A program made the position numbers and the translations under genes. A stretch of DNA of 64,000 bases from a bacterium (lineage in GTDB: Bacteria; Acidobacteriota; Thermoanaerobaculia; Multivoradales; J023), in assembly GCA_024226315.1 (NCBI GenBank), contig JAAELT010000577.1, positions 12,032 through 76,031 of the forward strand. Direction: 5' to 3'. A model generated the notes under the pieces. It was not told where the DNA came from. It ran no database searches and was given only the letters and a program-made list of their open reading frames with translations. The first letter of the stretch is position 1. Each line of letters opens with the position of its first letter. This document shows, piece by piece, positions 4,574-61,136 of the stretch.

Positions 4574-4615
4574 CTATCCTCCATGAAGACACGCGTATTC
4601 GCGCGGCGATCCGGC

Positions 4616-16442: not shown

Positions 16443-17792
16443 ATGCGCAACATCCTCGTGCTCGGCGCCGGCCATAGCGCCACCTACCTGATCCGCCATC
16501 TGCTCGAGCAGGCCCAGGAGCGGGAGTGGTTCGTCACCGTCGGCGACCGCGACGGCGAGCTGGCGGCGCGGGCGGTGGACGGCCATCCATGTGGCGACGG
16601 CGTTGCCTTCGACGTCAACGACGCCGAGATGCGCGCGGCGCAGATAGAGGAGGCGGCGGTGGTGGTCAACCTGCTGCCGCAGCATTTCCAGAGCCTCCTG
16701 GCCTGGGATTGCCTGCAGCACGGGCGGCACCTGGTCTCGGTGTCCTACAAGGACCGGCGCATGGACGAGCTGGAGCGCGACGCCCGGCGCAAGGGCGTGC
16801 TGATGCTCACCGAGATCGGGCTCGATCCGGGCATCGACCTGATGTCGGCGATGGCGGTGATCGGCCGGGTGCAGGAGGCGGGCGGCGTGGTGAGGAGCCT
16901 CGAGTCGTACGGCTCGGGCGTGCCCGCCCCGGAGGTGGACGCCAATCCGCTCCGCTACGCCATCACCTGGAACCCGCGCAACGTCGCCATGGCCGGTGAG
17001 CAGGGCGCCCAGTACCTCGAGCATGGCGAGATCAAGATCGTCCCCTGGCACCAGATCTTCCATCACACCTGGCGCAAGGAAGTCGCCGGATTCGGCCCGA
17101 TGGAGGCCTACCCGAACCGCGATTCCCTCTCCTACCGCGACAAGTTCGGCATCTCCGACGCCGAGACCCTGATCCGCGGCACCCTTCGTTACCCCGGCTG
17201 GAGCGAGACCTGGCACCAGATCGTGCGCCTGGGGCTGCCGAACGAGAACATCGCGATCCCGAACCTCGAGCGGCGCTGCTTCCGCGACATCGTCGAGATG
17301 TTCCTGCCGCGCAGTGTCTCGGGCTCGGGCGTCGAAGGCCGCTTTGCCAACTACCTGGGGATCAGCGAGACCGGCCGCATCATGGACAACCTGCGCTGGC
17401 TCGGCCTGTTCTCCGCGGAAGTCCTCGGAATCGAGGGCTCGACCGCCACCGACGCCCTGATCTTCCTGCTCGAGCGCAAGCTCGCCCTGCCCGCGGACGG
17501 CCGTGATGCCATCATCCTGCTGCACGAGGTGATCGCCCGCTATCCCGGCGAGAACGGCCGCGAGGAGCGCATCACCTCGACCCTCGTCCACTACGGCGAG
17601 CCCGGCGGCACGACGGCGATGGCCAGAACGGTGGGGCTGCCGGCGGCGGTCGCCATCGAGCTGCTGCTCGCCGGCGAGCTGCCGCTGACCGGCTGTCACA
17701 TCCCCACCCATCCGGCCATCTACCGGCCCATCCTCGACCGGCTCGAGGCCGCGGGCCTGAGCTTCGACGAAACGGTCGAGCCCGGCGGCTGA
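16443..17792 (+). CDS. saccharopine dehydrogenase (NADP-binding Sacchrp_dh family)
   Basis: N-terminal Rossmann fold MRNILVLGAGHSATYLIRHL. Family blocks LLPQHFQ...VSVSY, GLDPGIDLM and ITWNPRN are present. Confidence 0.8.
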   Translation: MRNILVLGAGHSATYLIRHLLEQAQEREWFVTVGDRDGELAARAVDGHPCGDGVAFDVNDAEMRAAQIEEAAVVVNLLPQHFQSLLAWDCLQHGRHLVSVSYKDRRMDELERDARRKGVLMLTEIGLDPGIDLMSAMAVIGRVQEAGGVVRSLESYGSGVPAPEVDANPLRYAITWNPRNVAMAGEQGAQYLEHGEIKIVPWHQIFHHTWRKEVAGFGPMEAYPNRDSLSYRDKFGISDAETLIRGTLRYPGWSETWHQIVRLGLPNENIAIPNLERRCFRDIVEMFLPRSVSGSGVEGRFANYLGISETGRIMDNLRWLGLFSAEVLGIEGSTATDALIFLLERKLALPADGRDAIILLHEVIARYPGENGREERITSTLVHYGEPGGTTAMARTVGLPAAVAIELLLAGELPLTGCHIPTHPAIYRPILDRLEAAGLSFDETVEPGG

Positions 17793-17812
17793 AGCGAACG
17801 CGGGGGAGAAAG

Positions 17813-18952
17813 ATGTCACGTCTCGTCACCGGCGTCGTCGGCACCTCGTCGAAGGAGAACGAGCACCGCCTGCCGATCCATCCCCGGCACCTGGACAGGA
17901 TCCCCGAGGCGGCGAGGGCGAGCCTGCGCCTGGAACGTGGTTACGGCCGGCGCTTCGGCGTTGGCGACGTCGAGCTCGAGGGCTTCTGCGGCGGCCTGCT
18001 GACGCGCGAAGAGATCCTCGCCGGCTGCGACGTGGTGGTGCTGCCCAAGCCGGTCGAATCCGACTTCGAGGCGATGCGCGACGGCGGCGTGCTGTGGGGC
18101 TGGCCGCACTGCGTGCAGCAGCGGCGGGTGACCCAGCTGGCGATCGACAAGCGGCTGACCCTGATCGCCTTCGAGGCGATGTTCCGCTGGCGCCGGCCGG
18201 GCCGGCGCGGCGTGCACGTGTTCGCCAAGAACAACGAGCTCGCCGGCTACTGCGCGGTGCTCCACGCCTTCGAGCTGCTGGGGATCGACGGCCACTACGG
18301 GCCGCGCCGGCGCGCCGCCGTGCTCGGGTTCGGCTCGGTCAGCCGCGGCGCCGTCTACGCGCTGGAGGGCCGCGGCGTCACCGACATCACGGTCTACACG
18401 CAGCGGCCGCCGCACCTGGTGCGCGACCAGAAGCTCGGCGGCGTCCACTTGCAGATGCGGCGTGGCGACGGCGGCAGTATGGAGGCCGTGCGCGCCGACG
18501 GTTCGGCGACCCCGCTGGCCGCCGAGCTCGCCCGCGCCGACGTCATCGTCAATGGCACGCTCCAGGACACCGACCGGCCGCTGATGTACCTCCCCGAGGG
18601 GGAGGAGGCGAGCCTGCGGCCCGGCAGCCTGATCGTCGACGTCAGCTGCGACCTCGGGATGGGCTTCTCCTTCGCCCGCCCGACCACCTTCGAAGACCCG
18701 ATCTTCCGCGCCGGCAAGGCGACGTATTACGCCGTCGATCACACCCCGACCTACCTGTGGGACGCCGCCAGCTGGGAGATCTCCGAGAGTCTGCTGCCGT
18801 ACTTCGGCACGGTGACGGGCGGCCCCGAGAGCTGGCGCGAGGAGCCGGTGATCGACCGCGCGATCGAGATCCGCGGCGGCGTGATCGAGAACCCGAAGAT
18901 CCTGAGCTTCCAGCGGCGGCGGGCGGAGTACCCGCACCCGCTCCGCCGGTGA
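17813..18952 (+). CDS. alanine dehydrogenase/PNT-fold enzyme; likely lysine-ketoglutarate reductase / saccharopine dehydrogenase (L-lysine-forming) partner
   Basis: NAD-binding block AVLGFGSVSRGAVYALEGRGV in an AlaDH/PNT-like architecture. It sits 20 bp downstream of the Sacchrp_dh gene on the same strand. Confidence 0.7.
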   Translation: MSRLVTGVVGTSSKENEHRLPIHPRHLDRIPEAARASLRLERGYGRRFGVGDVELEGFCGGLLTREEILAGCDVVVLPKPVESDFEAMRDGGVLWGWPHCVQQRRVTQLAIDKRLTLIAFEAMFRWRRPGRRGVHVFAKNNELAGYCAVLHAFELLGIDGHYGPRRRAAVLGFGSVSRGAVYALEGRGVTDITVYTQRPPHLVRDQKLGGVHLQMRRGDGGSMEAVRADGSATPLAAELARADVIVNGTLQDTDRPLMYLPEGEEASLRPGSLIVDVSCDLGMGFSFARPTTFEDPIFRAGKATYYAVDHTPTYLWDAASWEISESLLPYFGTVTGGPESWREEPVIDRAIEIRGGVIENPKILSFQRRRAEYPHPLRR

Positions 18953-19057
18953 GCACATTTGGCCACCTTGATCCGCGCTGCGCGCCAGTCCCGCCCTGGG
19001 TTCGACGCCGTTAATCCGTTTGCGTCAAGGATCTCCGCGACCGGCGCCGGGCTCGTT

Positions 19058-20593
19058 TCATTCGACGACGAAGGTCTGGAGCTCGACCGGGACCATCGAA
19101 TTGGCCAGGCTGTCGAAGTACACGTCCCCCTTCGTATCGCCGCTGACGGCGGAAGTGAAGGCGAAATATGCGTCGGTGGCGTCGACCACGAGGCCGAGGT
19201 ACTCGCCCAGCCAGGGCTCGCTGCCGGGCAGGTTGGTGGGGGTCGCGAAGCTCTGGTCCGTGACCCGGACATTGGTCGAGAAGGTCGTGCCGCCGTCGGT
19301 GCTCTTGGCCACGTAGACGTCCCACATGTCGTCATTGGCGGCGTTGCGCTTGTCGTACCAGGCGACGTCGATCGTGCCGTCGGACTTGACCACGATCATC
19401 GGATGGATCTGATCGCGGGTCGTGGCGTCGTCGTTGACCGTGAGCGGGGTCGACCACGTGGCTGTGCTGCCGCTCATGGTGGACCTGGTGAAGAAGATGT
19501 CGGCCTCGTCGGCGGCGCCCATGGGATCGGCGGCGTAGACCATGTAGACGGTCGTCGAGCTCGACGGGTTGGTGGCGATGGCCGGATAGCTGCCCGAGCG
19601 CGCGTCGTCCATCGCGCCGCCGAGCGTCGACATGTGGTTCGAGAGCGCGGTGATGTTCTGCGCCACCTGGTCGGTGGTGAAGCTGACCCCGCCGTCGGTC
19701 GACCGGTCGAGGTGCAGCGTGCCGGGCTTGGGGTTCATGTCGGTGACGTCGACGTCGATCCAGGAGACGTAGATCGTGCCGTTGGCGGCCACCGCCACGT
19801 CCGGGACGTTGGCGAAGTCGGACGGCGGTGCCGGCAGCGGCATCCCGCCGGGATTGTCGTTGATCGTCTTCGGGGCGATGCTGCCTGCCGGCACGCCGGT
19901 GAAGTCGAGCCCCGTGGGGTTCATGGGTCCCGGCACGACGGGCGGCGGCGACTTGGCGAAGTAGATGTCACTGGTCGGCAGCCCCTGGCCGACGTCCTTG
20001 ATCCACACCACGTAGACGTGGTCGCTGCCGTCGACGGTCATGTCGGGCCGGTCGTTGAAACGATAGGGATCGGGCATCGGTGGCGGTGGCAGCATCCCGG
20101 CGCGTACGTCGAAGTCGATAGTGTCCGGCCCCGACCAGGTTGCCCCCTTGTCCGTCGACCTCTCGATGTAGATGCCGCCAGGGCCGCCGCCCGAGCCGTC
20201 GGTGGCGATGTAGCCGGCGTAGATGTTGCCCAGGGAGTCGGAGTCGATGAACGGATCGAAGATGAAGCTCAGGGAGATGCCGTCGTCCGGTGACGGCGGC
20301 ATGAGGATCGGATGGGTCGGAACGCCCAGTTGCCGATCGAGCCACGTGGCGCCGGCGTCGAGGCTGAAGCTGACCCCGAGCGGGCTTGAGGCGGCGCCTG
20401 CGTTGTCGTTGTAGGCGACCACGAAGTTGTTGGCGTCGGTGGCGTTCTGCGTGATCCGGATCTCGTTCTGGACCGTGCCGGCGGCGTCGGAGTTGATTTT
20501 GACGTCCACTCCTGCGAGGGCCAGGACCGGCCAGGCCACAACCGCGGCCGTGGCGGCCACGGTCCTGAGTGTCGGCGAGCGCAGATCGATCAT
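19058..20593 (-). CDS. secreted BNR/Asp-box repeat protein (sialidase-like beta-propeller)
   Basis: A GGAGGA RBS precedes ATG MIDLRS (an upstream GTG at 20647 is less likely). Signal peptide present. Asp-box motifs: STDKGATW, STDGGVSF, STDGGTTF, SLDAGATW. Confidence 0.75.
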   Translation of the reverse strand: MIDLRSPTLRTVAATAAVVAWPVLALAGVDVKINSDAAGTVQNEIRITQNATDANNFVVAYNDNAGAASSPLGVSFSLDAGATWLDRQLGVPTHPILMPPSPDDGISLSFIFDPFIDSDSLGNIYAGYIATDGSGGGPGGIYIERSTDKGATWSGPDTIDFDVRAGMLPPPPMPDPYRFNDRPDMTVDGSDHVYVVWIKDVGQGLPTSDIYFAKSPPPVVPGPMNPTGLDFTGVPAGSIAPKTINDNPGGMPLPAPPSDFANVPDVAVAANGTIYVSWIDVDVTDMNPKPGTLHLDRSTDGGVSFTTDQVAQNITALSNHMSTLGGAMDDARSGSYPAIATNPSSSTTVYMVYAADPMGAADEADIFFTRSTMSGSTATWSTPLTVNDDATTRDQIHPMIVVKSDGTIDVAWYDKRNAANDDMWDVYVAKSTDGGTTFSTNVRVTDQSFATPTNLPGSEPWLGEYLGLVVDATDAYFAFTSAVSGDTKGDVYFDSLANSMVPVELQTFVVE

Positions 20594-20742
20594 GTTCGTC
20601 CTCCTCGATCTCGGCACTTCGTTCCAGCGGAACAGGGCGGTGAACACTGTACCACGGTCCCCGCCGACCTATCAGATCGTCCGAATACTCGGGCAATCTG
20701 ATAGGGTTGTTCGACAAATCCGCGGATCAGGGAGGCCGGCAC

Positions 20743-20945: not shown

Positions 20946-22310
20946 GTGTTGACCCGGCTGGAGGCGGACGGCTTCAAGAACCTGCTCGACTTCCGGGTCG
21001 ACTTCGGTCCCTTCAACTGCATCGCCGGGCCCAACGGCGTCGGCAAGTCGAATGTCTTCGACGCCATTCGCTTCCTGTCGCTGCTGACCGAGCACACCCT
21101 CACCGAGGCGGCGCTCTCCGTGCGTGGCGCGGATCCCGAGGCCAGCGATCCCCAGGACCTGTTCTGGACCGACGGCCAGAACCGCGCCCGCGAGCTGCGC
21201 CTGGCGGCGGAAATGCTGGTCGAGCCGGAGGTGATCGACGACTTCGGCCGCCCCGCCCACGCCAGCTCGACCTTTCTGCGTTACGAGCTGGTGATCGGCC
21301 ATCGCGACCACGGGCTCGAGTTGCTTGCCGAGCGCCTCGGCTACGTGACCGAGCGGGCGGCCGCGCGACGGCTCCGGTTTCCCCACAATGCCGCGGACTT
21401 CAGGCGCGCGGCGGTGGTGAACAGGCGGCGGCGCAAAGACGGTTACGTCTCCACTCACCGGGCGGCGGACGGCTCGGCCGAGATCGCCGTGCACCAGGAC
21501 GCGGGCGGCGTCGGCACCCCGGCGGCACCGGCGTCCTCGGCGCCGCGGACGATCGTCGGCACCTCGGGTACCGCGGTCACGCCGACGCTGCTGGCCGCGC
21601 GTCGGGAGATGGCGCGGTGGCGGCTGCTGGCGCTCGAGCCCCGGGCATGCCGCCGCGCCGACCGCTTTCACGCCGCGCCCCACGTCGACCAGCAGGGCGC
21701 CCACTTGCCCGCGGCGCTGCGACGCCTGGCGGACGGATCCGGAGAGCCGGAAAAGGTTTACGCGCGAATCGCCCGCCGCCTCGCCGAGCTCACGCCGGTG
21801 ACCGGCGTCGGCGTGGCGGTCGACCCGGTACGCAGGCTGCTGACGCTGGAAGTGGTGGAAGAGGGGGGCGCGGTGCTGCCGGCGCGCTCATTGTCGGACG
21901 GCACGCTGCGCTTCCTGGCTCTCTCGATTCTGCGCGAGGATCCCGAGCTCGGCGGCCTGCTGTGCCTGGAAGAGCCCGAGAACGGCGTTCATCCCGGCCG
22001 CATCGAGGCCTGGGTGCGATTGCTGCGCGACCTGGCGGTCGACCCCCGCCAGCCGCCTGGGCCGGGCAATCCACTCCGCCAGGTTATCGTCGCTACACAT
22101 TCGCCCGCCTTCGTCCAGCTGGTGGACGAAGGCGACCTGCTGCTGGCCACCCGCGAGAGCCTCGAGGACCGGAGCGCGACCGCCCTGCGATGCCGTCCTC
22201 TGGCCGGCAGCTGGCGCGCACGGGGCGGGGCCAAGGGTATGAGCCCAGGCACCGCCCTGGCCTACCTCACCACCCAGCACGGCGACCAGATTCGCCTGCC
22301 GGACTTATAG
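20946..22310 (+). CDS. AAA15/OLD-family ABC-type ATPase (stand-alone; defence-associated ATPase class)
   Basis: N-terminus RLEADGFKNLLDFRVDFGPFNCIAGPNGVGKSNVFDAIRFL (Walker A). Q-loop/signature LSDGTLRFLALSIL. Walker B/D-loop LLCLEEPENGVHP. H-loop VIVATHSPAF. A low-complexity insert sits between the lobes. Confidence 0.75.
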   Translation: MLTRLEADGFKNLLDFRVDFGPFNCIAGPNGVGKSNVFDAIRFLSLLTEHTLTEAALSVRGADPEASDPQDLFWTDGQNRARELRLAAEMLVEPEVIDDFGRPAHASSTFLRYELVIGHRDHGLELLAERLGYVTERAAARRLRFPHNAADFRRAAVVNRRRRKDGYVSTHRAADGSAEIAVHQDAGGVGTPAAPASSAPRTIVGTSGTAVTPTLLAARREMARWRLLALEPRACRRADRFHAAPHVDQQGAHLPAALRRLADGSGEPEKVYARIARRLAELTPVTGVGVAVDPVRRLLTLEVVEEGGAVLPARSLSDGTLRFLALSILREDPELGGLLCLEEPENGVHPGRIEAWVRLLRDLAVDPRQPPGPGNPLRQVIVATHSPAFVQLVDEGDLLLATRESLEDRSATALRCRPLAGSWRARGGAKGMSPGTALAYLTTQHGDQIRLPDL

Positions 22311-32484: not shown

Positions 32485-32798
32485 AGCCGAGAAAGGTCTT
32501 CGGGAATTTTTTTCTGCCCCGATGACCAGATCCATACGCGGATTTCGCGTCCTCTACAGAGCCGGGGATTTTCTCCTCACGAAGAAACGCCTCAAGGCTT
32601 CCGGATCCCGGCCTCGTCGCTGTCTTGCCGCAATAGCGGCATCACTAAACCCCATCGCCCCCCCCTGACAGCGGCGAGGCCAGGATTCACCTTTGATTCA
32701 AATGCCCTTGGGCGGCGCGGCCACGGTCACGCCGCCCTTTCTATATGCCCTGTCCTGCTAGAGTTCGGGCGTCTGGAACTTCCTCGAGGGACAAGTCC

Positions 32799-34646
32799 AT
32801 GCTGCCAACCCGTGTCGCCGTTGTCGCGATTGTGCTCTTGCTCGTTTCACTGCCCGTCCGCGCTTCGGTGGAGCCGGAGGAGGACTGGGCCACCCATGCC
32901 GAGGCCAGCGACTATCGCGCGACTCCGAGCTACGCCGAGACCATGGAGTTTCTGCGCCGTCTCGAGAGGCGCTCACCGCGGATCCAGCTCGCTACTTTTG
33001 GCCGCTCGCCCCAGGGGCGGGACCTGCCGCTGGTGATCGTCTCTGGGGAAGGGGCCTTCACGCCGGAGGCGGCGCACCGGCTCGGCAAGCCCATCGTGCT
33101 GATCCAGAACGGCATCCACTCCGGCGAGATCGACGGCAAGGACGCTTGCCTGGCCCTGCTGCGAGACCTGGCGACGGGCCGGCGACCCGACTTCGGGCAG
33201 GGCGTCACGCTGCTGATCGTCCCGATCTACAACGTCGACGGCCACGAGCGGACCTCGCCCCACAACCGGCCGAACCAGAACGGGCCGGTGGAGGGCATGG
33301 GTTTTCGCACCACCGCAGCCGGCTACGATCTCAACCGCGATCACCTGAAGCTCGAGTCGATGGAGGCGCGGGCGCTGATCGAGTTGGTCAATCGTTGGCG
33401 GCCGCACCTGCACGTCGACGATCACGTCACCAACGGCTCGGACCACGCCTGGGTCTTCACCTGGTCATGGGGCGAGGCGCCGCAACTGGCGGCCCCGGTC
33501 GCCGGCTGGCTGGCCGAGCACATGGGCAGCGTGCTCGACGCCGTCGAGGCTGCCGGCTACCGCACTGGCCCCTACGTGGGCCTGATCGACCGCAACGACC
33601 CGGCCAAGGGCTTCAGCTCCTGGGTGGGCGAGCCGCGCTATTCCGGCGGCTACTTCGCGCTGCGCCACCGGCCGTCGATCCTGGTCGAGATGCACGCCTA
33701 CAAGCCCTATCGCCAGCGCGTGCTGGCGTTGACCGAGTTCCTCGCGGCGCTGGTCGAGCGCGCCGGCGCCAGCGGCCGCCAGCTGGTCGAGGCGGTGGCC
33801 GCCGCCGAGGCCGCCACCGTGGCGCTCGGTGCCGCCGACGCCGAGTCCTCTGAGGTGGTGGTCGCCTGGGAGTCACACGATACCGGCGACACCATTCGCT
33901 GGCCGGTCTACGATTGGTCGTTCGAGCCGTCGCTGGCCCTGGGAGTGCCGATCCTGACCTTCGACCGCGGCAAGATCCGGGGCAGCGACCCGGCGGGCAT
34001 CGAGGTTCCCTGGATCCACGCCGGGCGCGCGGCCGAGACCGCGCCGCGCCCGCGTGGTTACCTGGTCGAGCCCGGCTGGCCGCAGATCGAGGAACGACTC
34101 ACTGCCCACGGCCTGGTGACCGCCCGCCTGAAGGAGGCCGTCGAGCTCGAGCTCGAGGTCTACCGCCTGGAGGATCCCGTCTTCGCCGAGGCGCCCTACC
34201 AGGGCCGCCACCGGCTGGACGAAGTAAGCCTCGCCCGCGTGACCGAGACCGTCTCGGTGCCGGCGGGCACCCTGTGGGTGCCCGCGAACCAGCCCGACTT
34301 CGAGGTGGCGGCGCAGCTGCTCGAACCCGAGGCGCCGGACTCACTGGTCTCCTGGGGCCTGACGTCGACCGTCTTCGAGCCCAAGGAGTACATCGACCCG
34401 CGGGTGCTGGAGCCGATCGTCCAGGAGCTGCTCCAAGACGACGAGGTGCGGGCCCGGTGGGAGGAAGCGCTCGAAGACGAGAGCTTCGCCGCCGATCCCA
34501 GGGCGCGCTGGATGTGGTGGTACCGCCAGACTGTCTACTGGGACGACACCGTCGGCCGCTGGCCGGCCTTGCGGGTAATGGGAGTCACGCCAGAGCTGTC
34601 GAACAGGGTGCGAAGACCAGAGTCGGCCCGCGCTGGTCGGCCCTGA
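32799..34646 (+). CDS. secreted M14-family zinc carboxypeptidase
   Basis: Signal peptide MLPTRVAVVAIVLLLVSLPVRA. Zn-binding HSGEIDG. LNRDHLKLES. N-terminal carboxypeptidase A-like domain plus a long C-terminal extension. Confidence 0.8.
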   Translation: MLPTRVAVVAIVLLLVSLPVRASVEPEEDWATHAEASDYRATPSYAETMEFLRRLERRSPRIQLATFGRSPQGRDLPLVIVSGEGAFTPEAAHRLGKPIVLIQNGIHSGEIDGKDACLALLRDLATGRRPDFGQGVTLLIVPIYNVDGHERTSPHNRPNQNGPVEGMGFRTTAAGYDLNRDHLKLESMEARALIELVNRWRPHLHVDDHVTNGSDHAWVFTWSWGEAPQLAAPVAGWLAEHMGSVLDAVEAAGYRTGPYVGLIDRNDPAKGFSSWVGEPRYSGGYFALRHRPSILVEMHAYKPYRQRVLALTEFLAALVERAGASGRQLVEAVAAAEAATVALGAADAESSEVVVAWESHDTGDTIRWPVYDWSFEPSLALGVPILTFDRGKIRGSDPAGIEVPWIHAGRAAETAPRPRGYLVEPGWPQIEERLTAHGLVTARLKEAVELELEVYRLEDPVFAEAPYQGRHRLDEVSLARVTETVSVPAGTLWVPANQPDFEVAAQLLEPEAPDSLVSWGLTSTVFEPKEYIDPRVLEPIVQELLQDDEVRARWEEALEDESFAADPRARWMWWYRQTVYWDDTVGRWPALRVMGVTPELSNRVRRPESARAGRP

Positions 34647-34977
34647 CAGGTTCGACTCGCACCAGGCAAGGCAGCAAACGGTGACCATGCCCCATGGTCT
34701 CGATGAAGGCCGGCCGTGCCGGGTCGTCACCCAGGCCGGCCCGGATCTGTGAGATGCAGCGCTGAACCGCCGCGTCGACCACGTGCGGCGTTCCCCAGAC
34801 CTCCGATTTGAGCTCGTCGTTGGGGACCACCGTTCCCCGATGCCGCGCCAGATAGCACAACACATCCATGGCGCGCGGCTCGAGCCGCACGTCACGGCGG
34901 CCATCGTTGACCAGGAACTCGGAGGGGTGGACGCTCCAGGAACCAATTCCTGAATCCGAAGGCCTCGTTTTTCTCAT
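34585..34977 (-). CDS. small winged-helix transcriptional regulator (OmpR/CadC-type trans_reg_C DNA-binding domain only)
   Basis: VRLEPRAMDVLCYLARHRGTVVPNDELKSEVWGTPHVVDAAVQRCISQIRAGLGDDPARPAFIETMGHGHRL matches the trans_reg_C consensus. No receiver domain. The 3' end overlaps the convergent M14 gene by about 60 bp, so the C-terminal extent is uncertain. Confidence 0.5.
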   Translation of the reverse strand: MRKTRPSDSGIGSWSVHPSEFLVNDGRRDVRLEPRAMDVLCYLARHRGTVVPNDELKSEVWGTPHVVDAAVQRCISQIRAGLGDDPARPAFIETMGHGHRLLPCLVRVEPVRADQRGPTLVFAPCSTALA

Positions 34978-35045
34978 CTGATAGGGAATTCGTACGAGAG
35001 CCAGTTCCGGATTCCTTGATCCAGGATTGCTATCCGGCCGCGCCG

Positions 35046-35274
35046 AACCGGGGGCGCTCGGGGTTGGGCTTGAGGCGGCCGAGCTCGATGCCGGTGTAGT
35101 AGTGGGCGAGGATGGAGCGGTAGCCGGCGCCGCGGACCGCCATGCCGAAGGCGCCGGCCTGGCACATGCCGACGCCATGGCCCCAGCCCTTGCCGCGGAA
35201 CACCCAGCCGGGCTCGCCGCCTCCGCCATTGGACGGCTGGGCCCAGAAGAGGGTGTCCCAGACGTCGAGGGTCC
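35046..35274 (-). repeat. diverged partial copy (about 230 bp, roughly 90% identity) of the 3' end of the SpoIID gene (original 36368..36596); in-frame translation ...[80 protein letters not shown]
   Basis: Direct alignment of 35046-35274 with 36368-36596. Substitutions are mostly synonymous or conservative (ASYRAILGHYY vs [11 protein letters not shown]). No upstream gene body. Confidence 0.75.
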
Positions 35275-35361
35275 TGGAAACCACCGTGCCCCGTTCCCGG
35301 ATTACCCTCATCAGGCGGAGTTCGATGTCGGCGGAGTGATCATCGACGCAAACTTGGGTGG

Positions 35362-35841
35362 TTACAGAATCTCTTCGAGCTTCGTGACGGGCGCGCGGTA
35401 GCCCTGAACGATCATGACGTCGAGCAGCTGGTTGCCCTCCTTCAGCGACAGCACACCGTTCTTGACGCATAGACCGAGGATGCCAACAGTGCCGGTGGTC
35501 GAGAGCCCCAATCTGCTCGCTGCCTTGCGAGCATCAAGGTCGTCAGTCACGATCACTTTGCCACGATGATGGGCGATCGCCAGGCAGCTTTTCTCGCCGG
35601 CTCCGAGCGAAGGTGGTAGCTCTTCAGCTGTCTTGTTCTCTTCGTCAGTAAGCTCGACGACAGTGAGGTCGTTCCAGGCCTCGGCAGGGACGCGGCCGCG
35701 TTCGACGCCGGCACGGTACTCACCTATCACGACCGCGGTGGTGCAGGCCGCATCGCCCCAGAGCCTGACGACCAGGTCTGGCCTACCGACCTTGGCGAGA
35801 TTCGACAACACGGTGTTGTCGAGGACGACCGACTGCGCCAC
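35362..35841 (-). CDS. PIN-like toxin (COG2405/DUF3368-type predicted nucleic-acid-binding PIN protein)
   Basis: N-terminus [25 protein letters not shown] conserved acidic position lies in [12 protein letters not shown]. Architecture and size are typical. Its start is 3 bp after the upstream antitoxin stop. Confidence 0.65.
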
Positions 35842-35843
35842 CG

Positions 35844-36278
35844 TCAGGAGAGAGTCGACTCCGCGATGAGGAGATCCTGCTTTGCGCCCTCACGATCGAT
35901 CGGAGCGTCGCGAAGGGGTAGGCCGAGACGCGAGAAGCGACCCCGCAGATCCAGCCAGGAGGTCCCCAGGACTTCTGCGGCTCGGGAGAGGCTGATGGCG
36001 CCGGACAGATAGTAGGCGAGGGCCGTTTCGGTTCGCGCCGTACCCGATAGACCGAGCAGCTTCGAGCCCTCCAGCCCCTGGCCCCGGTCGATCTGTGGGC
36101 GGTTGACGTAGTAGCAGATGACCGCCTTCAGGATCTCGAGATCGACAGGGTCGACGATGACGGCCTGGGGCTGACCGTGCTCTTCCACAACGATAGTTTC
36201 GCCTTGGCGAACGGCTCGGAGCACCCGGCCGGGGTCGCCGGCCAGCTCGTCTCGTCGGATGTGTCTGGCGGTTTTCAT
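35844..36278 (-). CDS. antitoxin: Phd/YefM-like N-terminus fused to UPF0175-type HTH C-terminus
   Basis: N-terminus MKTARHIRRDELAGDPGRVLRAVRQGETIVVEEHGQPQAVIV is Phd-like. C-terminus ALAYYLSGAISLSRAAEVLGTSWLDLRGRFSRLGLP is the UPF0175 motif. The upstream part of ORF-track entry 35844..36500 is out-of-frame read-through of the repeat. Confidence 0.6.
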   Translation of the reverse strand: MKTARHIRRDELAGDPGRVLRAVRQGETIVVEEHGQPQAVIVDPVDLEILKAVICYYVNRPQIDRGQGLEGSKLLGLSGTARTETALAYYLSGAISLSRAAEVLGTSWLDLRGRFSRLGLPLRDAPIDREGAKQDLLIAESTLS

Positions 36279-36351
36279 GGTCGTTCCTACCTGGAACGAG
36301 TGTAGCACCAGGTGGTCGGGGACCCTCAGGAGGGGACGAATCGCGTCGTCG

Positions 36352-38595
36352 CTAGCCGGTCTCGCCAAACCGGGGGCGCTCAGGGTTGGGCTTGAGGCGG
36401 CCGAGCTCGATGCCGGTGTAGTAGTGGCCGAGGATGGCTCGGTAGCTGGCGCCGCGGACGGCCATGCCGAAGGCGCCGGCCTGGCACATGCCGACGCCAT
36501 GCCCCCAGCCCTTGCCGCGGAACACCCAGCCGGGCTCGCCGCCTCCGCCGTTTGAGGGCTGCGCCCAGAAGAGGTTGTCCCAGACGTCGAGGGTCCAGCG
36601 CACCGCGAGGCCCTCGACCTCCAGACTCTCTCCGCCGGTGCCGAGGAGGCGCAGCTTGCCGACGCGGCCGGAGACGCCGCGCGCGACGACTTCGAAGCCC
36701 TCGAAGGGAAAGCCCGGGTACCGCGCCTGGACCGCGGAGCGCAGCTTGCGGGCGGAGATGAAGCGTGACCAGGTCTGCTTCGACACCTTGCCTGCCAGGC
36801 GCACCGGAGACGCCTCGACCGGCTGCACCAGGGCGATCAGATCGCCGCGGTGGCGGTAGAGGTCGAGCCGGTCGCCGGCCATGAGCTCCAGCTGACCGGC
36901 GCTCAAGCTGTCGCCGCGGCGCCTGAAGGTGGCGAAGTCGCTCGTCAGGTCGTAGGCGTGGCGGCCGGCCCGGTCCTTGACTTCCAGGCGGCCCTGGACC
37001 AGCCGCAAATAGCTGGTCCGCTGGCGCTCCACCACGCCCAGATAGGAGGCGAGCCGGAACAGCAGCTCTTCGACCTCGCCGTCGCCGGCCGCCTCCTCGC
37101 CGGTCCCGGCGAGCCACGAGCTGGAGACCAGGTAGGCGGCGAGCTCGCGCTCGCGTCCGCGCCAGTCGGCGGGAGGCTCTTCGAGCATCGTCTCGAGCTC
37201 CGCGCGAGTCGACCGCAGACGCCGGTCGAGAGCCAGGTCGTAGACCGAGGTGGCGAAGCGCAGGACCTCCTTGCGGCGCATCGAGCGCAAGCGGTCTTTC
37301 GGCACCGGCAGGTGGGCGAGCAGTGCCAGCTGTTCCATGCGCGCGGCCAGGCTCCGATGCCTCTTGCCGGCAGCGGGCGGCAGCAGGCGGCGGGTGAGGC
37401 CGGCGGGGAACGGGGTGCCCACGGCGGCACCGCCCTGCAGCCGACCGGCGCCGGACTCCAGGCACGGGACGCCCCGCAGGTAGGGGCCGGTCTTGAGCGG
37501 AAAGATCACCTCGACGTTCTCGGTGTGGCCGCCGCAGGTGGCGCCGTAGAAGGTCTCGGCCGGTTGGCCCTCGAACAACACCACCTGGCCGGCGGTCTCG
37601 GCGACCGCCCGGTCGGAGACCGGGTGCTCGACGGCCATGCCGCCGTAGACCTGGCAACGCGGGGTCGAGCAGATATCGTAGCCCTCGGCCTTGAACTCGT
37701 CCAGGCTGCGCACCGTGTAGGTTCGCGCCGCCACTGCCTGCGCCTTGAGCGCCTCCAGCCGGTCGAACAGCTCGGGGCCCATCTCCTTGGGCACCACGCC
37801 ACGAAGGTAATCCTCTAGCTCGATCTCGTTGATGATGTTGAGGTTGCCGCGCTCGTTCAGGAAGATCAGCAGCCGGCCTCGATAGCGCACGCCGTCGTAG
37901 GGAATGCCGACGCCTGCCGGCGCGGAGATCTCGAGCCAGCGGCCGGGGACGTCACGGCGCTCGCCGCCGAGGACGATCTCGAACGCCGGGTCTCGCAGGT
38001 CGCCGCCCTCGCTGGCGATCCAGCCCTTCTCCAGGCCGAGGCTCTGGAGGCGCCCCTGACCGGCTTCGGCCTCCTCGCGGGTGGCGAAGCGTCCGACGCG
38101 CACGCGGTAGAGATCGGTGCCGGCGTCGAAGACGGCATCGGCCGGCTGGCCGGTGGTGGCGGCGAGTCGCTCGGCGAGACCGATGGCCTGGCGCTCGTCC
38201 TTGAGTGCCGCCACCTGCAGGCGGTAGACGGCGCGCTCGGCCAGGGTGCCGGCGGGAGAGACGCTGGCGGTCTGCGAAAGCGGGAGCATCTCGCCGCCGG
38301 CGTCGAGCTCGAGCCTGGCGTCGCAGCACGGCAGGTCCACGGACCTGAGGTCGGTGGCCAGGCCGACGCGCACGACCAGCGGGCCGGTGGGGACGGGCGG
38401 TGGCGGCGGCGGCGGTGGCGGCACCCGGCGCGGTGGCGCCTCGCGGCGTGGTGGCGGCGGTGGCGGCGTGATCCGCTCCTCCGGCGGGCGCGGCTCGGGT
38501 TTCGAGACCGGCCTGGCGCCGGGGCGGCAGGAGACCAGCGCGATCGCGAATCCCAGAGCGAGACCCAGCGAACAGATCAGCGTACGGCGAGGCAT
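36352..38595 (-). CDS. SpoIID/LytB-domain cell-wall protein with SPOR domain and N-terminal Pro-rich linker (lipoprotein-like signal LVSC)
   Basis: SPOR: YRLQVAALKDERQAIGLAERLAATTGQPADAVFDAGTDLYRVRVGRFATREEAEAG. SpoIID: LEALKAQAVAARTYTV...[40 protein letters not shown] tract. Confidence 0.8.
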   Translation of the reverse strand: MPRRTLICSLGLALGFAIALVSCRPGARPVSKPEPRPPEERITPPPPPPRREAPPRRVPPPPPPPPPVPTGPLVVRVGLATDLRSVDLPCCDARLELDAGGEMLPLSQTASVSPAGTLAERAVYRLQVAALKDERQAIGLAERLAATTGQPADAVFDAGTDLYRVRVGRFATREEAEAGQGRLQSLGLEKGWIASEGGDLRDPAFEIVLGGERRDVPGRWLEISAPAGVGIPYDGVRYRGRLLIFLNERGNLNIINEIELEDYLRGVVPKEMGPELFDRLEALKAQAVAARTYTVRSLDEFKAEGYDICSTPRCQVYGGMAVEHPVSDRAVAETAGQVVLFEGQPAETFYGATCGGHTENVEVIFPLKTGPYLRGVPCLESGAGRLQGGAAVGTPFPAGLTRRLLPPAAGKRHRSLAARMEQLALLAHLPVPKDRLRSMRRKEVLRFATSVYDLALDRRLRSTRAELETMLEEPPADWRGRERELAAYLVSSSWLAGTGEEAAGDGEVEELLFRLASYLGVVERQRTSYLRLVQGRLEVKDRAGRHAYDLTSDFATFRRRGDSLSAGQLELMAGDRLDLYRHRGDLIALVQPVEASPVRLAGKVSKQTWSRFISARKLRSAVQARYPGFPFEGFEVVARGVSGRVGKLRLLGTGGESLEVEGLAVRWTLDVWDNLFWAQPSNGGGGEPGWVFRGKGWGHGVGMCQAGAFGMAVRGASYRAILGHYYTGIELGRLKPNPERPRFGETG

Positions 38596-54601: not shown

Positions 54602-57600
54602 ATGAATCCCGCTTCCCTCGCCGTTCGCCGCCCGATCACCACCGCCATGCTGCTGCTCAGCATCCTGCTGTTCGGCGGCATCGCGCTCACGCGCCTGCCG
54701 GTGGAGTTCCTGCCCGAAGTCGACATCCCGTTCATCGCCGTCGAGATCCCCTACGACAACACCAACCCGGCGCAGGTCGAGCGCGAGATCACCAAGCCGG
54801 TGGAGGAGATCCTGGCGACGCTGCCCGGCATCAAGCGGCTGGGCTCGGACTCCAACGCCGACGGCGCCTTCATCTTCCTGGAGTTCAACTGGGGCCACGA
54901 CCTCGACATCGTGCGCATGCAGGTGTCGGAGAAGATGGACCAGGTCGAGGGTGAGCTGCCCGAGCAGATCGGCGAGATCCGGATCTTCTCCTTCAACAGC
55001 TCCGACATCCCGGTAGTCGAGGCGCGCATCTCGGCCGAGGGCGTCGACATGTCGGAGAACTACCAGCTGCTCGAGGCCCGGGTGCTCAACCGCATCCGGC
55101 GCATCCCGGGCGTCGCCAAGGTCGAGCTCGACGGCGTCGAGCCGCGCGAGATCTTCGTCGAGCTGGTGCTCGACAAGGTCAAGGAGCACGGCGTCGACGT
55201 CGGCGAGCTGATCCAGTTGCTGAACGGTGCGTCTTCCAACCTGGTACTGGGCGAGGTCCAGGACGGAGGCCTGCGCTACACCGCCCGCGCCCTGGGCTCG
55301 TTCGAGAGCGTCCAGGAGCTGCGCGAGCTGGTGATCGACGAGCGCGGCCTGCGCCTGGCCGACATCGCCGAGATCAGTTACGAGGAGCCGCCGATCCGCT
55401 ACGGCCGGCACCTGAACCGCAAAGACGCCGTCGCCCTGACCGTGTTCAAGGAGTCCACCGCCAACACCGTCGAGGTGGTCAACGCGGTGATGGGCGTGAT
55501 CGAGAACGACATCGACGGCGACCCCCTGCTGCAGGGCGTCAGCCTGTTCGTGTGGCAGAACCAGGCCGAGCAGATCACGGGCGCCCTCAACGGCCTGACC
55601 CGCGCCGGCTTGATCGGCGCCCTGCTCGCCGTCCTGGTGCTCTACTTCTTCCTGCGCCGCCTTGGCTCGACGCTGATCGTCTCCATGTCGATTCCGTTCT
55701 CGATCATCGCCGCCTGCGGCGTGATGTATTTCATGGGCAAGACCCTGAACGTGCTGTCGATGATGGGATTGATGCTGGGCGTCGGCATGCTGGTCGACAA
55801 CGCCATCGTCATCCTGGAATCGATCGACCGCACCAAGCGCAGCGAGCCGGACCCGAAGAAGGCCGCGCTGAAAGGCACCAAGAGCGTCTCGATGGCGGTC
55901 ATCGCCTCGACCGCGACGTCGCTGATCGTCTTCCTGCCGCTGATCGTTGGGGGCGAGTCCGAGCTCACCGTCTGGCTCGGCGAGGTGGGCATCGCCATCG
56001 CCCTGGCGCTGGTCTGCTCGCTGGTCTCGTCACTGACCCTGATCCCGCTGATGACCAGCCGCTTCCTGCCGGCCGGCAAGTCGAAGCCGATTCCGCTGAT
56101 GGCCCGCACCGAAGACCGCTACGTGCATCTGCTGCACTGGACGCTGCGGCACAAGCTGCGGACCTTCCTGCTGATCGTCGGCGGCGCCGGCTTCGGCTTC
56201 CTGCCGTTCTTCGCCGGCTGGGTGGACATGAGCCAGTTCTCCGGCGCGGTCAACGAGCGCCTCTACCTGGACTACGAGTTCACCGACTTCGTCTACAAGT
56301 CCCAGGCCGAGGACGTGGTCGACGTCGTCGAGCAGCACCTCGAGCCACAGCTCGAGGAGCTGGGCGTCGCCTCGATGTACAGCTTCTACACCTCCAACCG
56401 GGCCGGCACCACGTTGACCCTGGCGCGCAAGGACCTGGGCGACAAGGAGGTCAAGAAGCTGCGCCAGAAGATCCGCGACGGCCTGCCCGAGATCCCGGGC
56501 GTCAAGCTGGCGTTCTTCGAGGACGCTGACTCGGGCGGTGGCTCGACCTACTTCTCGGTCAACTTCTTCGGCCAGGATTCAGGCGTGCTGGCGAAGTTCG
56601 GCGACGAGGCCAAGCGGCGGCTCGAGACCGTCGAGGGCGTGCAGGACATCACCACTTCGTTCGGCAAGAGCCGCAAGGAGATCCAGGTTCAGGTCGACCG
56701 CGACAAAGCGGCGCGCTTAGGGCTGACCGCCCAGGAGGTGGCCGACACCTTCTCCTTCACCCTCGGCAGCTTCCGCCTGCCGCGCTTCAACGACGGCAAG
56801 CGCGAGGTGGAGACCTCGCTCGGGCTGCGCATCGTCGACCGCGAGAACCTGGCGGACCTCAAGGAGATCCCGTTCCGTGACGTCGACGGCCGGCCGGTGA
56901 CCCTGGGCGACGTCGCCACCTTCGAGGTGGTGGAGAAGCCCGAGGAGATCGAGCGCCAGGACCGCAAGGTGCGCGCCGCGGTGCGGGCCACCTACGAGGG
57001 CGAGAACTGGGACGAGGCGCGCGAGGAGATCACCGCCCTGATGGACGCCTTCGACCTGCCGGGCGGCTATTCCTGGTCGTGGAACCGGCGCATGATCGAG
57101 CAGGACCAGCAGGGCGCCGAGATGGGCGTCAACATGCTGCTGGCGCTGGTGCTGATCTACCTGGTGATGGCGTCGCTGTTCGAATCGCTGGCGCAGCCGT
57201 TCTCGATCCTGTTCTCGATCCTCTTCGCCCTGCCCGGCGTTGCCTGGCTGCTGGCCGCCACCGACACGCCTTTCAACCTGATGTCGTGGATCGGCTTCCT
57301 GATCCTGATGGGCATCGTGGTCAACAACGGCATCGTGTTGCTGGATCACATGAACCAGCTGCGCAAGGAAGGCCTGGGCATCGAGGAGTCCATCCTCATG
57401 GCCGGCCGCGACCGCATGCGAGCCGTGCTGATGACCGCCTCGACCACCATCATCGGCCTCCTGCCATTGGCCATCGGCGGCTCCCGTGTCGGCGGCTTGT
57501 TCTACTATCCGCTGGCCATCACCGTCATGGGCGGACTGATGTCCTCGGCGGTGCTGACCCTGGTGGTGCTGCCCTACATCAACTGGAACGTCGAGTTCGT

Positions 57601-57703
57601 GGCGGCGTGGATCCGGCGGCTGTGGCGGGAGTCCGGGGCGGTGCGGTCGCCGCGTCGGGTGGAGTCGGCTCGGCCGGTCGAGACCGTCGAAGTGGTGGGT
57701 TGA
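54602..57703 (+). CDS. RND efflux transporter permease, second of tandem pair (MdtC-like)
   Basis: MNPASLAVRRPITTAMLLLSILLFGGIALTRLPVEFLPEVDIP. About 45% identity to the upstream paralog in conserved blocks. The tandem arrangement is as in MdtABC. Confidence 0.9.
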   Translation: MNPASLAVRRPITTAMLLLSILLFGGIALTRLPVEFLPEVDIPFIAVEIPYDNTNPAQVEREITKPVEEILATLPGIKRLGSDSNADGAFIFLEFNWGHDLDIVRMQVSEKMDQVEGELPEQIGEIRIFSFNSSDIPVVEARISAEGVDMSENYQLLEARVLNRIRRIPGVAKVELDGVEPREIFVELVLDKVKEHGVDVGELIQLLNGASSNLVLGEVQDGGLRYTARALGSFESVQELRELVIDERGLRLADIAEISYEEPPIRYGRHLNRKDAVALTVFKESTANTVEVVNAVMGVIENDIDGDPLLQGVSLFVWQNQAEQITGALNGLTRAGLIGALLAVLVLYFFLRRLGSTLIVSMSIPFSIIAACGVMYFMGKTLNVLSMMGLMLGVGMLVDNAIVILESIDRTKRSEPDPKKAALKGTKSVSMAVIASTATSLIVFLPLIVGGESELTVWLGEVGIAIALALVCSLVSSLTLIPLMTSRFLPAGKSKPIPLMARTEDRYVHLLHWTLRHKLRTFLLIVGGAGFGFLPFFAGWVDMSQFSGAVNERLYLDYEFTDFVYKSQAEDVVDVVEQHLEPQLEELGVASMYSFYTSNRAGTTLTLARKDLGDKEVKKLRQKIRDGLPEIPGVKLAFFEDADSGGGSTYFSVNFFGQDSGVLAKFGDEAKRRLETVEGVQDITTSFGKSRKEIQVQVDRDKAARLGLTAQEVADTFSFTLGSFRLPRFNDGKREVETSLGLRIVDRENLADLKEIPFRDVDGRPVTLGDVATFEVVEKPEEIERQDRKVRAAVRATYEGENWDEAREEITALMDAFDLPGGYSWSWNRRMIEQDQQGAEMGVNMLLALVLIYLVMASLFESLAQPFSILFSILFALPGVAWLLAATDTPFNLMSWIGFLILMGIVVNNGIVLLDHMNQLRKEGLGIEESILMAGRDRMRAVLMTASTTIIGLLPLAIGGSRVGGLFYYPLAITVMGGLMSSAVLTLVVLPYINWNVEFVAAWIRRLWRESGAVRSPRRVESARPVETVEVVG

Positions 57704-57881
57704 GTTTCACTCGCCCTGAGTCTCCCAGCCCGAGAGCTCGTCTCCCAGCCCCTGCCCTCGCTGTAGGCCTCGGCCCGCAGCTCGGGCTCGTCCTGACTGT
57801 AGGGCACCAGTTCGCCTAAACGCCGTTTCGAACTCGTACGTATTGGCAGGTGTACCGGGTGTTCGATTTCAGGAGTCGTAG

Positions 57882-59999: not shown

Positions 60000-60088
60000 G
60001 CTTCGCGGGGCGCGGACGCCCGATGGGTGAACCTCGGCGACCAGGACCTCGCTCGGGGCGCCTCGAATCGCCGACGTAATGAGTCGCC

Positions 60089-60338
60089 GGCCTCCTGCCC
60101 CTGGCCCTGGGCGGCTCCCGTGTCGGCGGGCTGTTCTACTACCCGCTGGCGATCACCGTCATGGGCGGGTTGATGTCCTCCGCGGTGCTGACCCTGGTGG
60201 TGCTGACCTACATCAACTGGATCGTCGAGTTCGTGGCGGAGTGGCTGAAGCGGCTGTGGCGGGAGTCGGGGGTGGTGCGGGCTCCGCGTCGGGCGGAGCC
60301 GGCGCCGGTAGGCGAGACCGTCGAGGCGGTGGGGTGAG
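60089..60338 (+). repeat. diverged copy (about 250 bp, roughly 88% identity, in-frame, with stop) of the 3' end of the second RND gene (original 57455..57703)
   Basis: The alignment is in frame. The copy encodes LLPLALGGSRVGGLFYYPLAITVMGGLMSSAVLTLVVLTYINWIVEFVAEWLKRLWRESGVVRAPRRAEPAPVGETVEAVG* against the original GLLPLAIGGSRVGGLFYYPLAITVMGGLMSSAVLTLVVLPYINWNVEFVAAWIRRLWRESGAVRSPRRVESARPVETVEVVG*. Confidence 0.8.
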
Positions 60339-60367
60339 CCGCTGAGCGCCTGTGATCGCGAATCCGA

Positions 60368-60607
60368 TCAAGCCTGCTCGTAGGCGCTCAAGAAGTCGTC
60401 TCTGGTGATCTTCGACTGTCTCAAGATGGTCCGGAGGGTGGACGCCTTGAGGCGGCGATGGTTGGGCATCGTCAGAGGCGTTTTCGTGCCGTCTGCATTC
60501 TCGCGAACCATGGCGATGTGGTTGCCTTCGCGGACGATCACGAAGCCGACTGACCCCAGCGCTTTGACGACCCGCTTCTTCGGGGCATCGACGGGGAACT
60601 TCGGCAT
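60368..60607 (-). CDS. hicA: HicA-family mRNA interferase toxin
   Basis: MPKFPVDAPKKRVVKALGSVGFVIVREGNHIAMVRENADGTKTPLTMPNHRRLKASTLRTILRQSKITRDDFLSAYEQA matches the YcfA/HicA consensus (GSH-like segment EGNH, trailing helical region). Confidence 0.7.
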   Translation of the reverse strand: MPKFPVDAPKKRVVKALGSVGFVIVREGNHIAMVRENADGTKTPLTMPNHRRLKASTLRTILRQSKITRDDFLSAYEQA

Positions 60608-60832
60608 CTAGACCGCGACGGCCATCTCGGCAACGAAGACCTCGCTGGCCTCGTCTTCTTCCTCGAGGACTTCTCGGCCGAAGGTCTCTACGTGGAACTC
60701 GATGGCGGACTTCGCATCCGCTAGCGCCTCTTCGTACGTGTCGCCTTCAGCAACCACGACTCCTTTGAGCCCGACCGGATAGGCGACATAGCCGTCGGCG
60801 TGTTTCTCGACAATGATCTTGATGTTCTTGAC
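60608..60832 (-). CDS. hicB: HicB-family antitoxin (UPF0150)
   Basis: GTG start preceded by a GGAGGAG RBS. VKNIKIIVEKHADGYVAYPVGLKGVVVAEGDTYEEALADAKSAIEFHVE. The stop abuts the hicA ATG. The ORF-track entry extends upstream without support. Confidence 0.65.
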   Translation of the reverse strand, partial: VKNIKIIVEKHADGYVAYPVGLKGVVVAEGDTYEEALADAKSAIEFHVETFGREVLEEEDEASEVFVAEMAVAV

Positions 60833-60863
60833 CACTGGGGAACTCCTCCGGTTGGAAGGCGTG

Positions 60864-61136
60864 CTAATTGCGCTGAGTAGCCCGGTGGGCATCGGCGAGA
60901 TCCTGCTCGAGCTCTTCCGGGGCCTCTCCGAAGGGGGAGAGGCCATAGCGACTCAACAAGAAGAGGAAGGTGAAACGAGGCATCCCGGCGAGGCTGGCCG
61001 CCAGCCCCGTGCTCAGCCGTCCCGTCTTGTAGAGCTGCAATGCCAGCAGGAGGGGAGCCTCCGCCTCGAACTCCTCGGGCTCCTGCTGGAGAGCCCACAA
61101 GACTTCGGATGGGTAGTCGATGGTGAGGGTCTTCAT
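60864..61136 (-). CDS. UPF0175-family small HTH protein (antitoxin-type) without adjacent PIN partner
   Basis: MKTLTIDYPSEVLWALQQEPEEFEAEAPLLLALQLYKTGRLSTGLAASLAGMPRFTFLFLLSRYGLSPFGEAPEELEQDLADA is a UPF0175 match (LS.G.AA.LAGM.R..F...L...G). Confidence 0.5.
   Translation of the reverse strand: MKTLTIDYPSEVLWALQQEPEEFEAEAPLLLALQLYKTGRLSTGLAASLAGMPRFTFLFLLSRYGLSPFGEAPEELEQDLADAHRATQRN

Follow-up and report, generated by a model that had tools for sequence, protein, structure and literature searches.

How does the end of a gene come to stand a second time on a chromosome, in frame and without the body of the gene, on the far side of a foreign-looking pair of small genes? The question is raised by a SpoIID/SPOR cell-wall gene in a 64-kb stretch (positions 12,032 to 76,031; hereafter the window, meaning the whole stretch analysed) of contig JAAELT010000577.1, a contig of 131,934 bp from a metagenome-assembled genome (MAG) assigned to the Thermoanaerobaculia (Acidobacteriota). 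Downstream of this gene lie a predicted antitoxin gene and a predicted toxin gene, and beyond them a second copy of the SpoIID 3' end. We refer to the tail of the working gene as R1, to the orphan tail as R2, and to the DNA between them as the cargo. The explanation that we favour, with about even confidence, is that the locus is the scar of a homology-driven capture, in which a diverged gene tail and its cargo came from a sister lineage without the help of an autonomous element.

The orphan tail and its cargo

R1 and R2 form a direct repeat in which 246 nt (36352-36598 against 35030-35276) align without gaps at 93.5% identity, with 16 mismatches, as determined by alignment and blastn. Their homology extends 1 nt past the TAG and reaches, at the other end, codon 3 of '...RW|TLDVWD...', and the longest run of identity common to both tails is 47 nt. 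R2 comprises 82 SpoIID codons and the TAG, in frame and without a gene body, and contains no indels and no premature stops. A repeat search called a slightly wider pair (35029-35291 and 36351-36613, 91% identical, spacing 1322), and R1/R2 is the strongest repeat in the window (E 2e-93). The original prediction had described an in-frame SpoIID 3' end without a gene body beyond a toxin-antitoxin pair, and repeat search, alignment and blastn all bear it out; the extent it gave for the copy (35046-35274, about 75 codons) was slightly too short. Reading outward from the SpoIID gene, the locus contains the following features.

36352-38595, minus strand: SpoIID/SPOR gene, 747 aa, intact (Pfam SpoIID 1.3e-25, SPOR 2.9e-13)
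36352-36598, minus strand: R1, the proximal tail of the working SpoIID gene, its last 82 codons plus TAG (direct repeat)
36279-36351, minus strand: spacer of 73 nt from the SpoIID stop to the antitoxin start, with a palindrome inside
35844-36278, minus strand: antitoxin gene, 144 aa, with a Phd/YefM-like N-terminus and a UPF0175-like C-terminus
35362-35841, minus strand: toxin gene, 159 aa, PIN-like DUF3368 (COG2405 type), called from weak Pfam matches and from homologues
35277-35361, minus strand: spacer of 85 nt from the toxin stop to the orphan tail, unstructured (fold z-score +0.96)
35030-35276, minus strand: R2, the orphan SpoIID tail, 82 codons plus TAG (direct repeat, dN/dS)
34978-35029: AT-richer spacer of 52 nt from the orphan-tail stop to the winged-helix start (GC 0.60)
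34585-34977, minus strand: stand-alone winged-helix gene, OmpR/CadC-type, 130 aa (Pfam Trans_reg_C 4.3e-14)
32745-34646, plus strand: M14 carboxypeptidase gene, the native convergent neighbour of SpoIID (Pfam Peptidase_M14)

The product of the SpoIID gene is identical to a database entry titled 'MAG: SpoIID/LytB domain-containing protein'. In the MAG annotation the orphan tail appears as a 93-aa hypothetical ORF (35030-35311; MCP3962989.1 / GY719_34550); this annotated 'hypothetical protein' is a gene fragment. The arrangement is present in a second, independent contig from a metagenome assembly (L086, JAANTA014008280.1, 2.2 kb), which is 100% identical to window positions 36427-34455 and spans the junctions between R1 (in part) and the cargo, between the cargo and R2, and between R2 and the winged-helix gene exactly as the window does. 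Because there is no other source for the k-mers at the cargo-R2 junction, that junction did not arise by hopping between strain variants.

The cargo is 1.07 kb long and has the toxin-antitoxin pair as its sole genes. Its GC content is 0.63 as against 0.72 for SpoIID, and third-position GC in the toxin gene is 0.75 as against about 0.9. The two genes are co-oriented with the antitoxin first, and the toxin starts 2 nt after the antitoxin stop. The gene calls made earlier for SpoIID, the winged-helix protein, the antitoxin and the PIN toxin were all backed by Pfam, weakly and below threshold in the case of the pair. The antitoxin matched PhdYeFM (6e-5, 23.2 bits, cut-off 29.8) and UPF0175 (3.4e-4, 20.7 bits, cut-off 27.9) in Pfam and phd_fam in NCBIfam (5.6e-4). 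The toxin matched DUF3368 (8.4e-5, 22.8 bits, cut-off 27.3) and PIN (3.7e-3, 18.3 bits, cut-off 23.6), with no NCBIfam match, and a PDB sequence search with it returned spurious repeat-protein matches only. The PIN call is backed by the DUF3368 annotation of its homologues (PF11848 is precomputed on 56 of 56) and by conserved acidic residues: across 16 homologues D8, E41, E83, D100 and D101 are invariant and D103 is nearly so.

Antitoxin-like partners of 144-149 aa also stand upstream of homologous PIN genes at four other loci (L087, L088, L090 and L092). By layout and PIN residues, the pair fits a predicted type II toxin-antitoxin module of the UPF0175/Phd plus PIN/DUF3368 kind. Just before the ATG of the antitoxin gene, and overlapping its ribosome-binding region, stands a perfect palindrome, CGTTCC-N5-GGAACG (36282-36298), whose hairpin is kept in the centroid fold; it may be the autoregulatory operator of the pair. 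Antitoxin-first order, the 2-nt gap, the PIN acidic residues and an upstream palindrome are features shared with pairs of UPF0175 (COG2886) and PIN-DUF3368 (COG2405). Unlike those pairs, the present, predicted one has an extra Phd/YefM-like N-terminal segment and sub-threshold Pfam matches. The closest PIN homologues, at no more than 60% identity, are accompanied by similar antitoxin genes in unrelated contexts. Neither flanking direct repeats nor a winged-helix neighbour was found around homologous DUF3368/PIN pairs in four other genomes; the winged-helix gene and the pair, whose joint travel had been proposed as a check, do not travel together in these genomes.

Local alignment of the 85-nt spacer between toxin and orphan tail with the SpoIID body and with the region upstream of SpoIID gave scores no better than shuffles. 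More generally, the spacers ahead of R2 had no significant similarity to gene bodies or upstream regions of the kind that a deleted paralogue would leave. On the far side of R2, the AT-richer stretch that had been predicted is real (GC about 0.60 at about 34800-35100 versus about 0.72), but the imperfect inverted repeats claimed for it (34960-35040) are not significant: the search returned a single pair of 9 nt, and the fold z-score is +0.36. The winged-helix protein has the CadC N-terminus as its best NCBIfam match (3e-13, far under the cut-off), and the 3' end of its gene overlaps the M14 gene by 62 nt.

Divergence of the tails and the empty site

Comparison of the two SpoIID 3' ends, proposed as a check on the original prediction, gave a dN/dS of 0.18 and a dS of 0.19, from 10 synonymous and 6 non-synonymous differences. 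Binomial tests returned P = 0.0014 under neutrality and P = 0.05 under an omega of 0.5, so that a combination of one constrained with one free lineage is unlikely as well. Because the differences are mostly synonymous, the tails diverged mainly inside functional genes, as alleles of two lineages. R1 and R2 are each other's nearest relatives and have in common stretches of 14 and 10 residues that occur in none of the database homologues. The best full-length SpoIID homologue is 78% identical, and the nearest homologues come from Acidobacteriota/Thermoanaerobaculia MAGs.

Two contigs, L086 and L096 (JAANTA013077185.1), both of assembly GCA_024449835.1, match the window identically save for end segments of about 240 nt that are 12-14% diverged (L086 1974-2219, corresponding to window 34209-34454, and L096 40-275, corresponding to window 16416-16651). 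Between the window and these ends dS is 0.24-0.36, close to the dS of the tails. Either the diverged ends are true tracts of recombination between two populations living side by side, or these contig ends are chimeric. They show that a sister population co-occurs at the right distance to have served as donor.

The empty site that had been sought in relatives was found in locus L005, in which SpoIID and M14 (69% and 72% identical to those of the window) are convergent and overlap by 9 nt. The site lacks the toxin-antitoxin pair, the winged-helix gene and the orphan tail, and L005 is an empty site. By tblastn, homology of M14 to its L005 orthologue (72%) stops at residue 612, near nt 34580, which is also the end of the winged-helix ORF. 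The last 21 codons of M14 (34582-34646) have no L005 counterpart and run, on the opposite strand, across the 3' end of the winged-helix ORF. Insertion of the winged-helix gene appears, from this comparison, to have replaced the native C-terminus of M14.

The order of a DnaC/IstB-like ATPase gene followed by SpoIID is kept in L003-L006, L011, L013 and L014, and the core genes around the locus include GDH and GDSL lipase genes (syntenic with L003), an M20 peptidase gene and others. A duplicated tail without intervening genes, which the original prediction had named as a sign that its reading was wrong, was not seen in relatives, and none of the 83 fetched loci matching the SpoIID tail carries a second tail copy at all. 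A winged-helix homologue was present in no fetched locus apart from L086, and exact look-ups with SpoIID, the winged-helix protein and the orphan ORF returned no variant context beyond that contig. A scan of a genome collection with SpoIID gave distant cyanobacterial matches only.

A metagenome scan with the tail alignment found one close locus, L006 (SpoIID 68% identical). There, at 4158-4785, SpoIID is followed by an AT-rich gap, a small ORF and a VapC-like PIN ORF with an in-frame stop; this ORF pair, spotted by eye and without a match in Pfam, differs from the pair in the window. Toxin-antitoxin pairs may land repeatedly in the 3' flank of SpoIID.

Recurrence at two further genes

The original prediction had noted the same architecture at an RND gene elsewhere in the window. 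We confirmed this case (87% identity, plus a third copy) and found a further one at a BNR-repeat gene.

57454-62354, plus strand: RND array, consisting of R1 (57454-57703), a TPR gene (705 aa), R2 (60088-60337), cargo and R3 (62274-62353)
16290-19147, minus strand: BNR locus, with the gene tail at 19058-19147 duplicated at 16293-16382

The RND gene occupies 54602-57703, and its last 83 codons form the repeat 57454-57704 / 60088-60338; the third copy is 81 nt long and covers the last 27 codons (62274-62354). Cargo between the second and third RND tails consists of HicA/HicB, UPF0175 and MazE-PIN genes, and past the third tail, up to 63730, lie an Xre-like ORF and a RES-domain toxin gene. Because the three RND tail alleles are mutually distinct (star-like rather than mosaic), at least three lineages contributed to this array.

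At the BNR locus, the last 30 codons of the gene (19058-20647, minus strand) are repeated over 93 nt at 89% identity (16290-16382 / 19055-19147). The cargo is an operon of saccharopine-dehydrogenase (SacDH) and AlaDH-like genes in the opposite orientation, and a relative, L097, also has the SacDH operon with a different upstream context. In the diverged end of L096, a mosaic sister-population contig of 1.9 kb that shows at least the start of a BNR-type gene (L096 1-275), a BNR-type ATG and ribosome-binding site abut the SacDH spacer at the position where the window has the 93-nt orphan tail. This start is 88% identical to the 5' end of the window's BNR gene, and CTGAC is common to both junctions. 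Because of this gene start and the shared CTGAC, the BNR orphan tail is most simply read as a remnant of a second gene copy, putatively removed by microhomology-mediated deletion. The original prediction had allowed that an orphan tail might be the true end of a second paralogue separated from its 5' part by misassembly; the BNR tail comes close to this, but without misassembly.

Tail pairs at the three loci have dN/dS values of 0.18 (SpoIID), 0.37 (RND, first versus second copy) and 0.26 (BNR), all in frame, with dS of 0.19-0.28 and divergence of 6.5-13%. Of the 58 changes at the three loci together, 27 are non-synonymous (P = 0.045 under an omega of 0.5). All tail copies in the window end at the stop codon and are gapless. 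The spacers before the orphan tails measure 60-88 nt and fold no better than shuffles (z-scores +0.6 to +2.1), and no motif common to the SpoIID, RND and BNR boundaries was found. In 662 kb of other loci that were fetched, repeats of this kind are rare, and the close relatives have none. A tblastx self-comparison for more diverged orphan tails was too noisy to use.

The window has several other features of interest. REP-like GC-rich palindromic elements with the core GGAGTTGTC...GACAACTCC occur at 6699-6828, 16197-16262 and 63813-63974, and one of the three directly follows the orphan BNR tail; terminators are one possibility, a family of repeated extragenic elements another. About 1 kb from the orphan BNR tail, an ORF fragment (14990-15364, minus strand) has a weak, sub-threshold match to rve_3, an integrase core (4e-5), and is probably an insertion sequence remnant. 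An RHS-repeat protein is encoded at 11638-14298 (plus strand) and an AAA_21/AAA_15 (AbiEii/OLD-like) ATPase at 20946-22310 (plus strand), which points to an abundance of conflict or defence genes in this part of the contig.

Origin and meaning of the locus

A capture scar calls for a repeat that is a segment of the resident gene, with the signature of a functional allele in both copies, and for a lineage of matching divergence, and both were found. In the account that we favour, the incoming DNA would have come from a related lineage, diverged like the sister population, and would have carried a SpoIID 3' end together with the lower-GC PIN/UPF0175 pair. It would have entered the resident chromosome anchored by SpoIID homology, by one of two routes: a single RecA-type crossover with a circularised fragment (Campbell-type), or homology-facilitated illegitimate recombination, in which one end invades through homology and the other is joined illegitimately. 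An earlier stage may have been a larger merodiploid, in which the gene stood twice in full until a deletion trimmed it. The outcome would be an intact SpoIID gene ending in the R1 allele, followed by the cargo and then by the R2 allele, stranded upstream of the old downstream DNA. Homology between the copies would stop at the stop codon because orthology of donor and recipient ends there. The anatomy, the allele-like divergence, the empty site, the lack of recombinase, att or attC features and the second contig are observations; the recombination route and the assignment of R1 or R2 to the donor are inferences. The toxin-antitoxin pair probably stabilises the arrangement, because a deletion between R1 and R2 would remove the antitoxin gene.

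Several points weigh against this account. The expected donor arrangement, SpoIID with this pair and no orphan tail, was not found, and the closest SpoIID in the databases is only 78% identical, which leaves the direction and route of transfer hypothetical. RecA recombination across 6-13% divergence and 81-250 nt is inefficient, and four events in 64 kb suggest a frequency above that expected of random recombination. All four cargo ends (4/4) lie 60-88 nt past a gene boundary, tidier than the ends of random fragments, a regularity that selection and later deletions could explain. Finally, the sequence is a MAG, and contigs of the related assembly are mosaic at their ends.

Several known kinds of arrangement were considered for the SpoIID locus and rejected. 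A template/variable repeat pair of a diversity-generating retroelement does not fit, since the mismatches are of all types (C/G, C/T, G/A) rather than adenine-specific and no ORF scanned with Pfam encodes a reverse transcriptase. An integron cassette is contradicted by the unstructured post-cargo spacers (60-88 nt), in which there is no attC hairpin, and by the lack of IntI. For a transposon with a long target duplication, terminal inverted repeats and a transposase are missing, and the tails diverged under purifying selection. A tRNA, tmRNA or other RNA attachment site is likewise rejected, with no tRNA in the window and no Rfam match at the locus (33.5-37.5 kb). A second SpoIID paralogue, nearby or in relatives, was absent from the 83 tail-matched loci. 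The toxin-antitoxin pair flanked by miniature inverted-repeat transposable elements after the Microcystis MaOC1 gene (PMC7935541) differs in that its repeats are intergenic and not gene tails.

The orphan tail might be the relic of a complete second SpoIID copy, held in a merodiploid or as tandem paralogues and trimmed by microhomology-mediated deletion. This reading overlaps with capture and differs from it solely in the intermediate state; we regard it as unlikely, though worth keeping in view. The low dN/dS is equally expected under it, and the BNR-type gene start in L096, at the position of the window's orphan tail and with CTGAC in common, is a case in its favour, set against the mosaic nature and 1.9-kb length of that contig. 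At SpoIID itself, no second tail among the 83 loci and no relative with two SpoIID copies was seen, and the 85-nt spacer shows no similarity to the SpoIID body or upstream region. A different history would involve a site-specific element. In E. coli, e14 and phage 21 sit at the 3' end of icd, and streptococcal integrative and conjugative or mobilisable elements sit at the 3' ends of rpsI, rplL, fda and similar genes. Such elements carry a diverged replacement 3' end, with the gene left functional and the original end present as a pseudo-copy at the far junction, and they encode their own tyrosine or serine integrase beside an attachment site with a defined core. R1 and R2 would then be attL and attR of an element of this type, or of a small mobilisable islet, whose integrase has been lost or acts in trans. 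Direct repeats that include the target's 3' end do flank foreign-looking cargo beside an intact gene, the empty site exists in L005, the three-copy RND array resembles serial integration, the cargo ends are tidy, and the 47-nt identical run could hold a core. Unlike e14, phage 21 and the streptococcal elements, the units here (1.1-2.7 kb) have no detectable recombinase or core: Pfam scans of the four cargo units and of the core genes around them turned up no recombinase gene, and the sole trace in the window is the weak rve_3 fragment near 15 kb. The three targets are unrelated and have no common motif; the cargo is heterogeneous and in one case a metabolic operon, which L097 also has, its upstream context being different; no repeats flank related toxin-antitoxin pairs elsewhere; cargo plus tail was not found at SpoIID in other genomes; and the BNR case is better explained by deletion. 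We consider such an element rather improbable at this locus. The original prediction thus holds in part, for the insertion, the displaced tail and the recurrence. Its broader proposal, a family of integrative elements that target gene 3' ends, is not supported, on the same grounds: no recombinase, no shared motif or hairpin, heterogeneous cargo, homologous PIN pairs without repeats, and a BNR orphan better read as a deletion relic.

That the structure is a metagenome assembly artefact, with alleles of two populations about 10% apart stitched in tandem or a graph loop walked twice, seems very unlikely. The source is a MAG, and the divergence of the tails matches that of the populations. L086 and L096 fall from 100% to about 86-88% identity close to one of their ends, which shows the presence of two populations and suggests that contig ends are chimeric. 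Against this, the cargo-R2 junction has no alternative source and a graph path needs real spanning k-mers, all three junctions recur in the separate contig L086, and R1 and R2 share no identical run longer than 47 nt. In-situ tandem duplication of the SpoIID tail, for instance as a long target-site duplication followed by neutral decay, is barely credible; the copies are direct and close together, but with a dN/dS of 0.18 and 82 codons free of indels and stops neutrality is rejected (P = 0.0014), and terminal inverted repeats and a transposase are absent. No transposon is known to make a target-site duplication of 246 nt. An unrecognised cassette-moving system, which would insert a replacement tail plus cargo right after a stop codon by means of an enzyme acting in trans or unrecognisable as such, is in our judgement a long shot. 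Under such a system, toxin-antitoxin pairs would be favoured because they lock in direct repeats that are otherwise deletable, and the tidy ends (4/4 units) and four events in 64 kb would be its signatures.

The capture that we favour resembles two known recombination outcomes. In experiments with E. coli, plasmids bearing a fragment of the lacZ end mostly integrated by single crossover of recircularised molecules, giving gene-end duplications of 109-950 bp (PMC3240628). There as here, cargo is flanked by a gene-end duplication (81-251 nt in the window), the target gene stays intact and no dedicated recombinase is needed; unlike there, the copies here are alleles diverged by 6.5-13%, the event is a natural one in an uncultured Acidobacteriota-like genome, and the circle is hypothetical. 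In the second, C-terminal displacement, orphan 3' ends in Rhs, CdiA and type VI secretion system effector-immunity arrays have been proposed to arise through homology-facilitated illegitimate recombination (PMC5361080 and references there). In both settings homology-anchored DNA brings a new 3' end with downstream genes and leaves the old end orphaned, and when this happens repeatedly an array results, as in the RND case. In the toxin arrays the displaced tips are toxin domains that differ in function, each with immunity genes, and the repeat is the conserved part upstream of the tip; here the displaced end is a nearly identical allele of a gene of housekeeping type, and what is new is the cargo between the tails. 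The locus is a natural variant, outside toxin loci, of recombination scars already known, and is not categorically new.

If capture is the right explanation, displaced tails would record, in datable form, the passage of genes between sister lineages of uncultured bacteria. Each such scar would mark a point at which accessory DNA, here toxin-antitoxin pairs and the TPR gene, entered the chromosome, and the divergence between its tails would gauge the distance of the donor. Orphan in-frame gene tails in MAGs would then offer a cheap way to map such events. Toxin-antitoxin modules would be able to spread and become fixed beside housekeeping genes without mobile-element machinery, and the pair itself may guard the insertion from recombinational loss.

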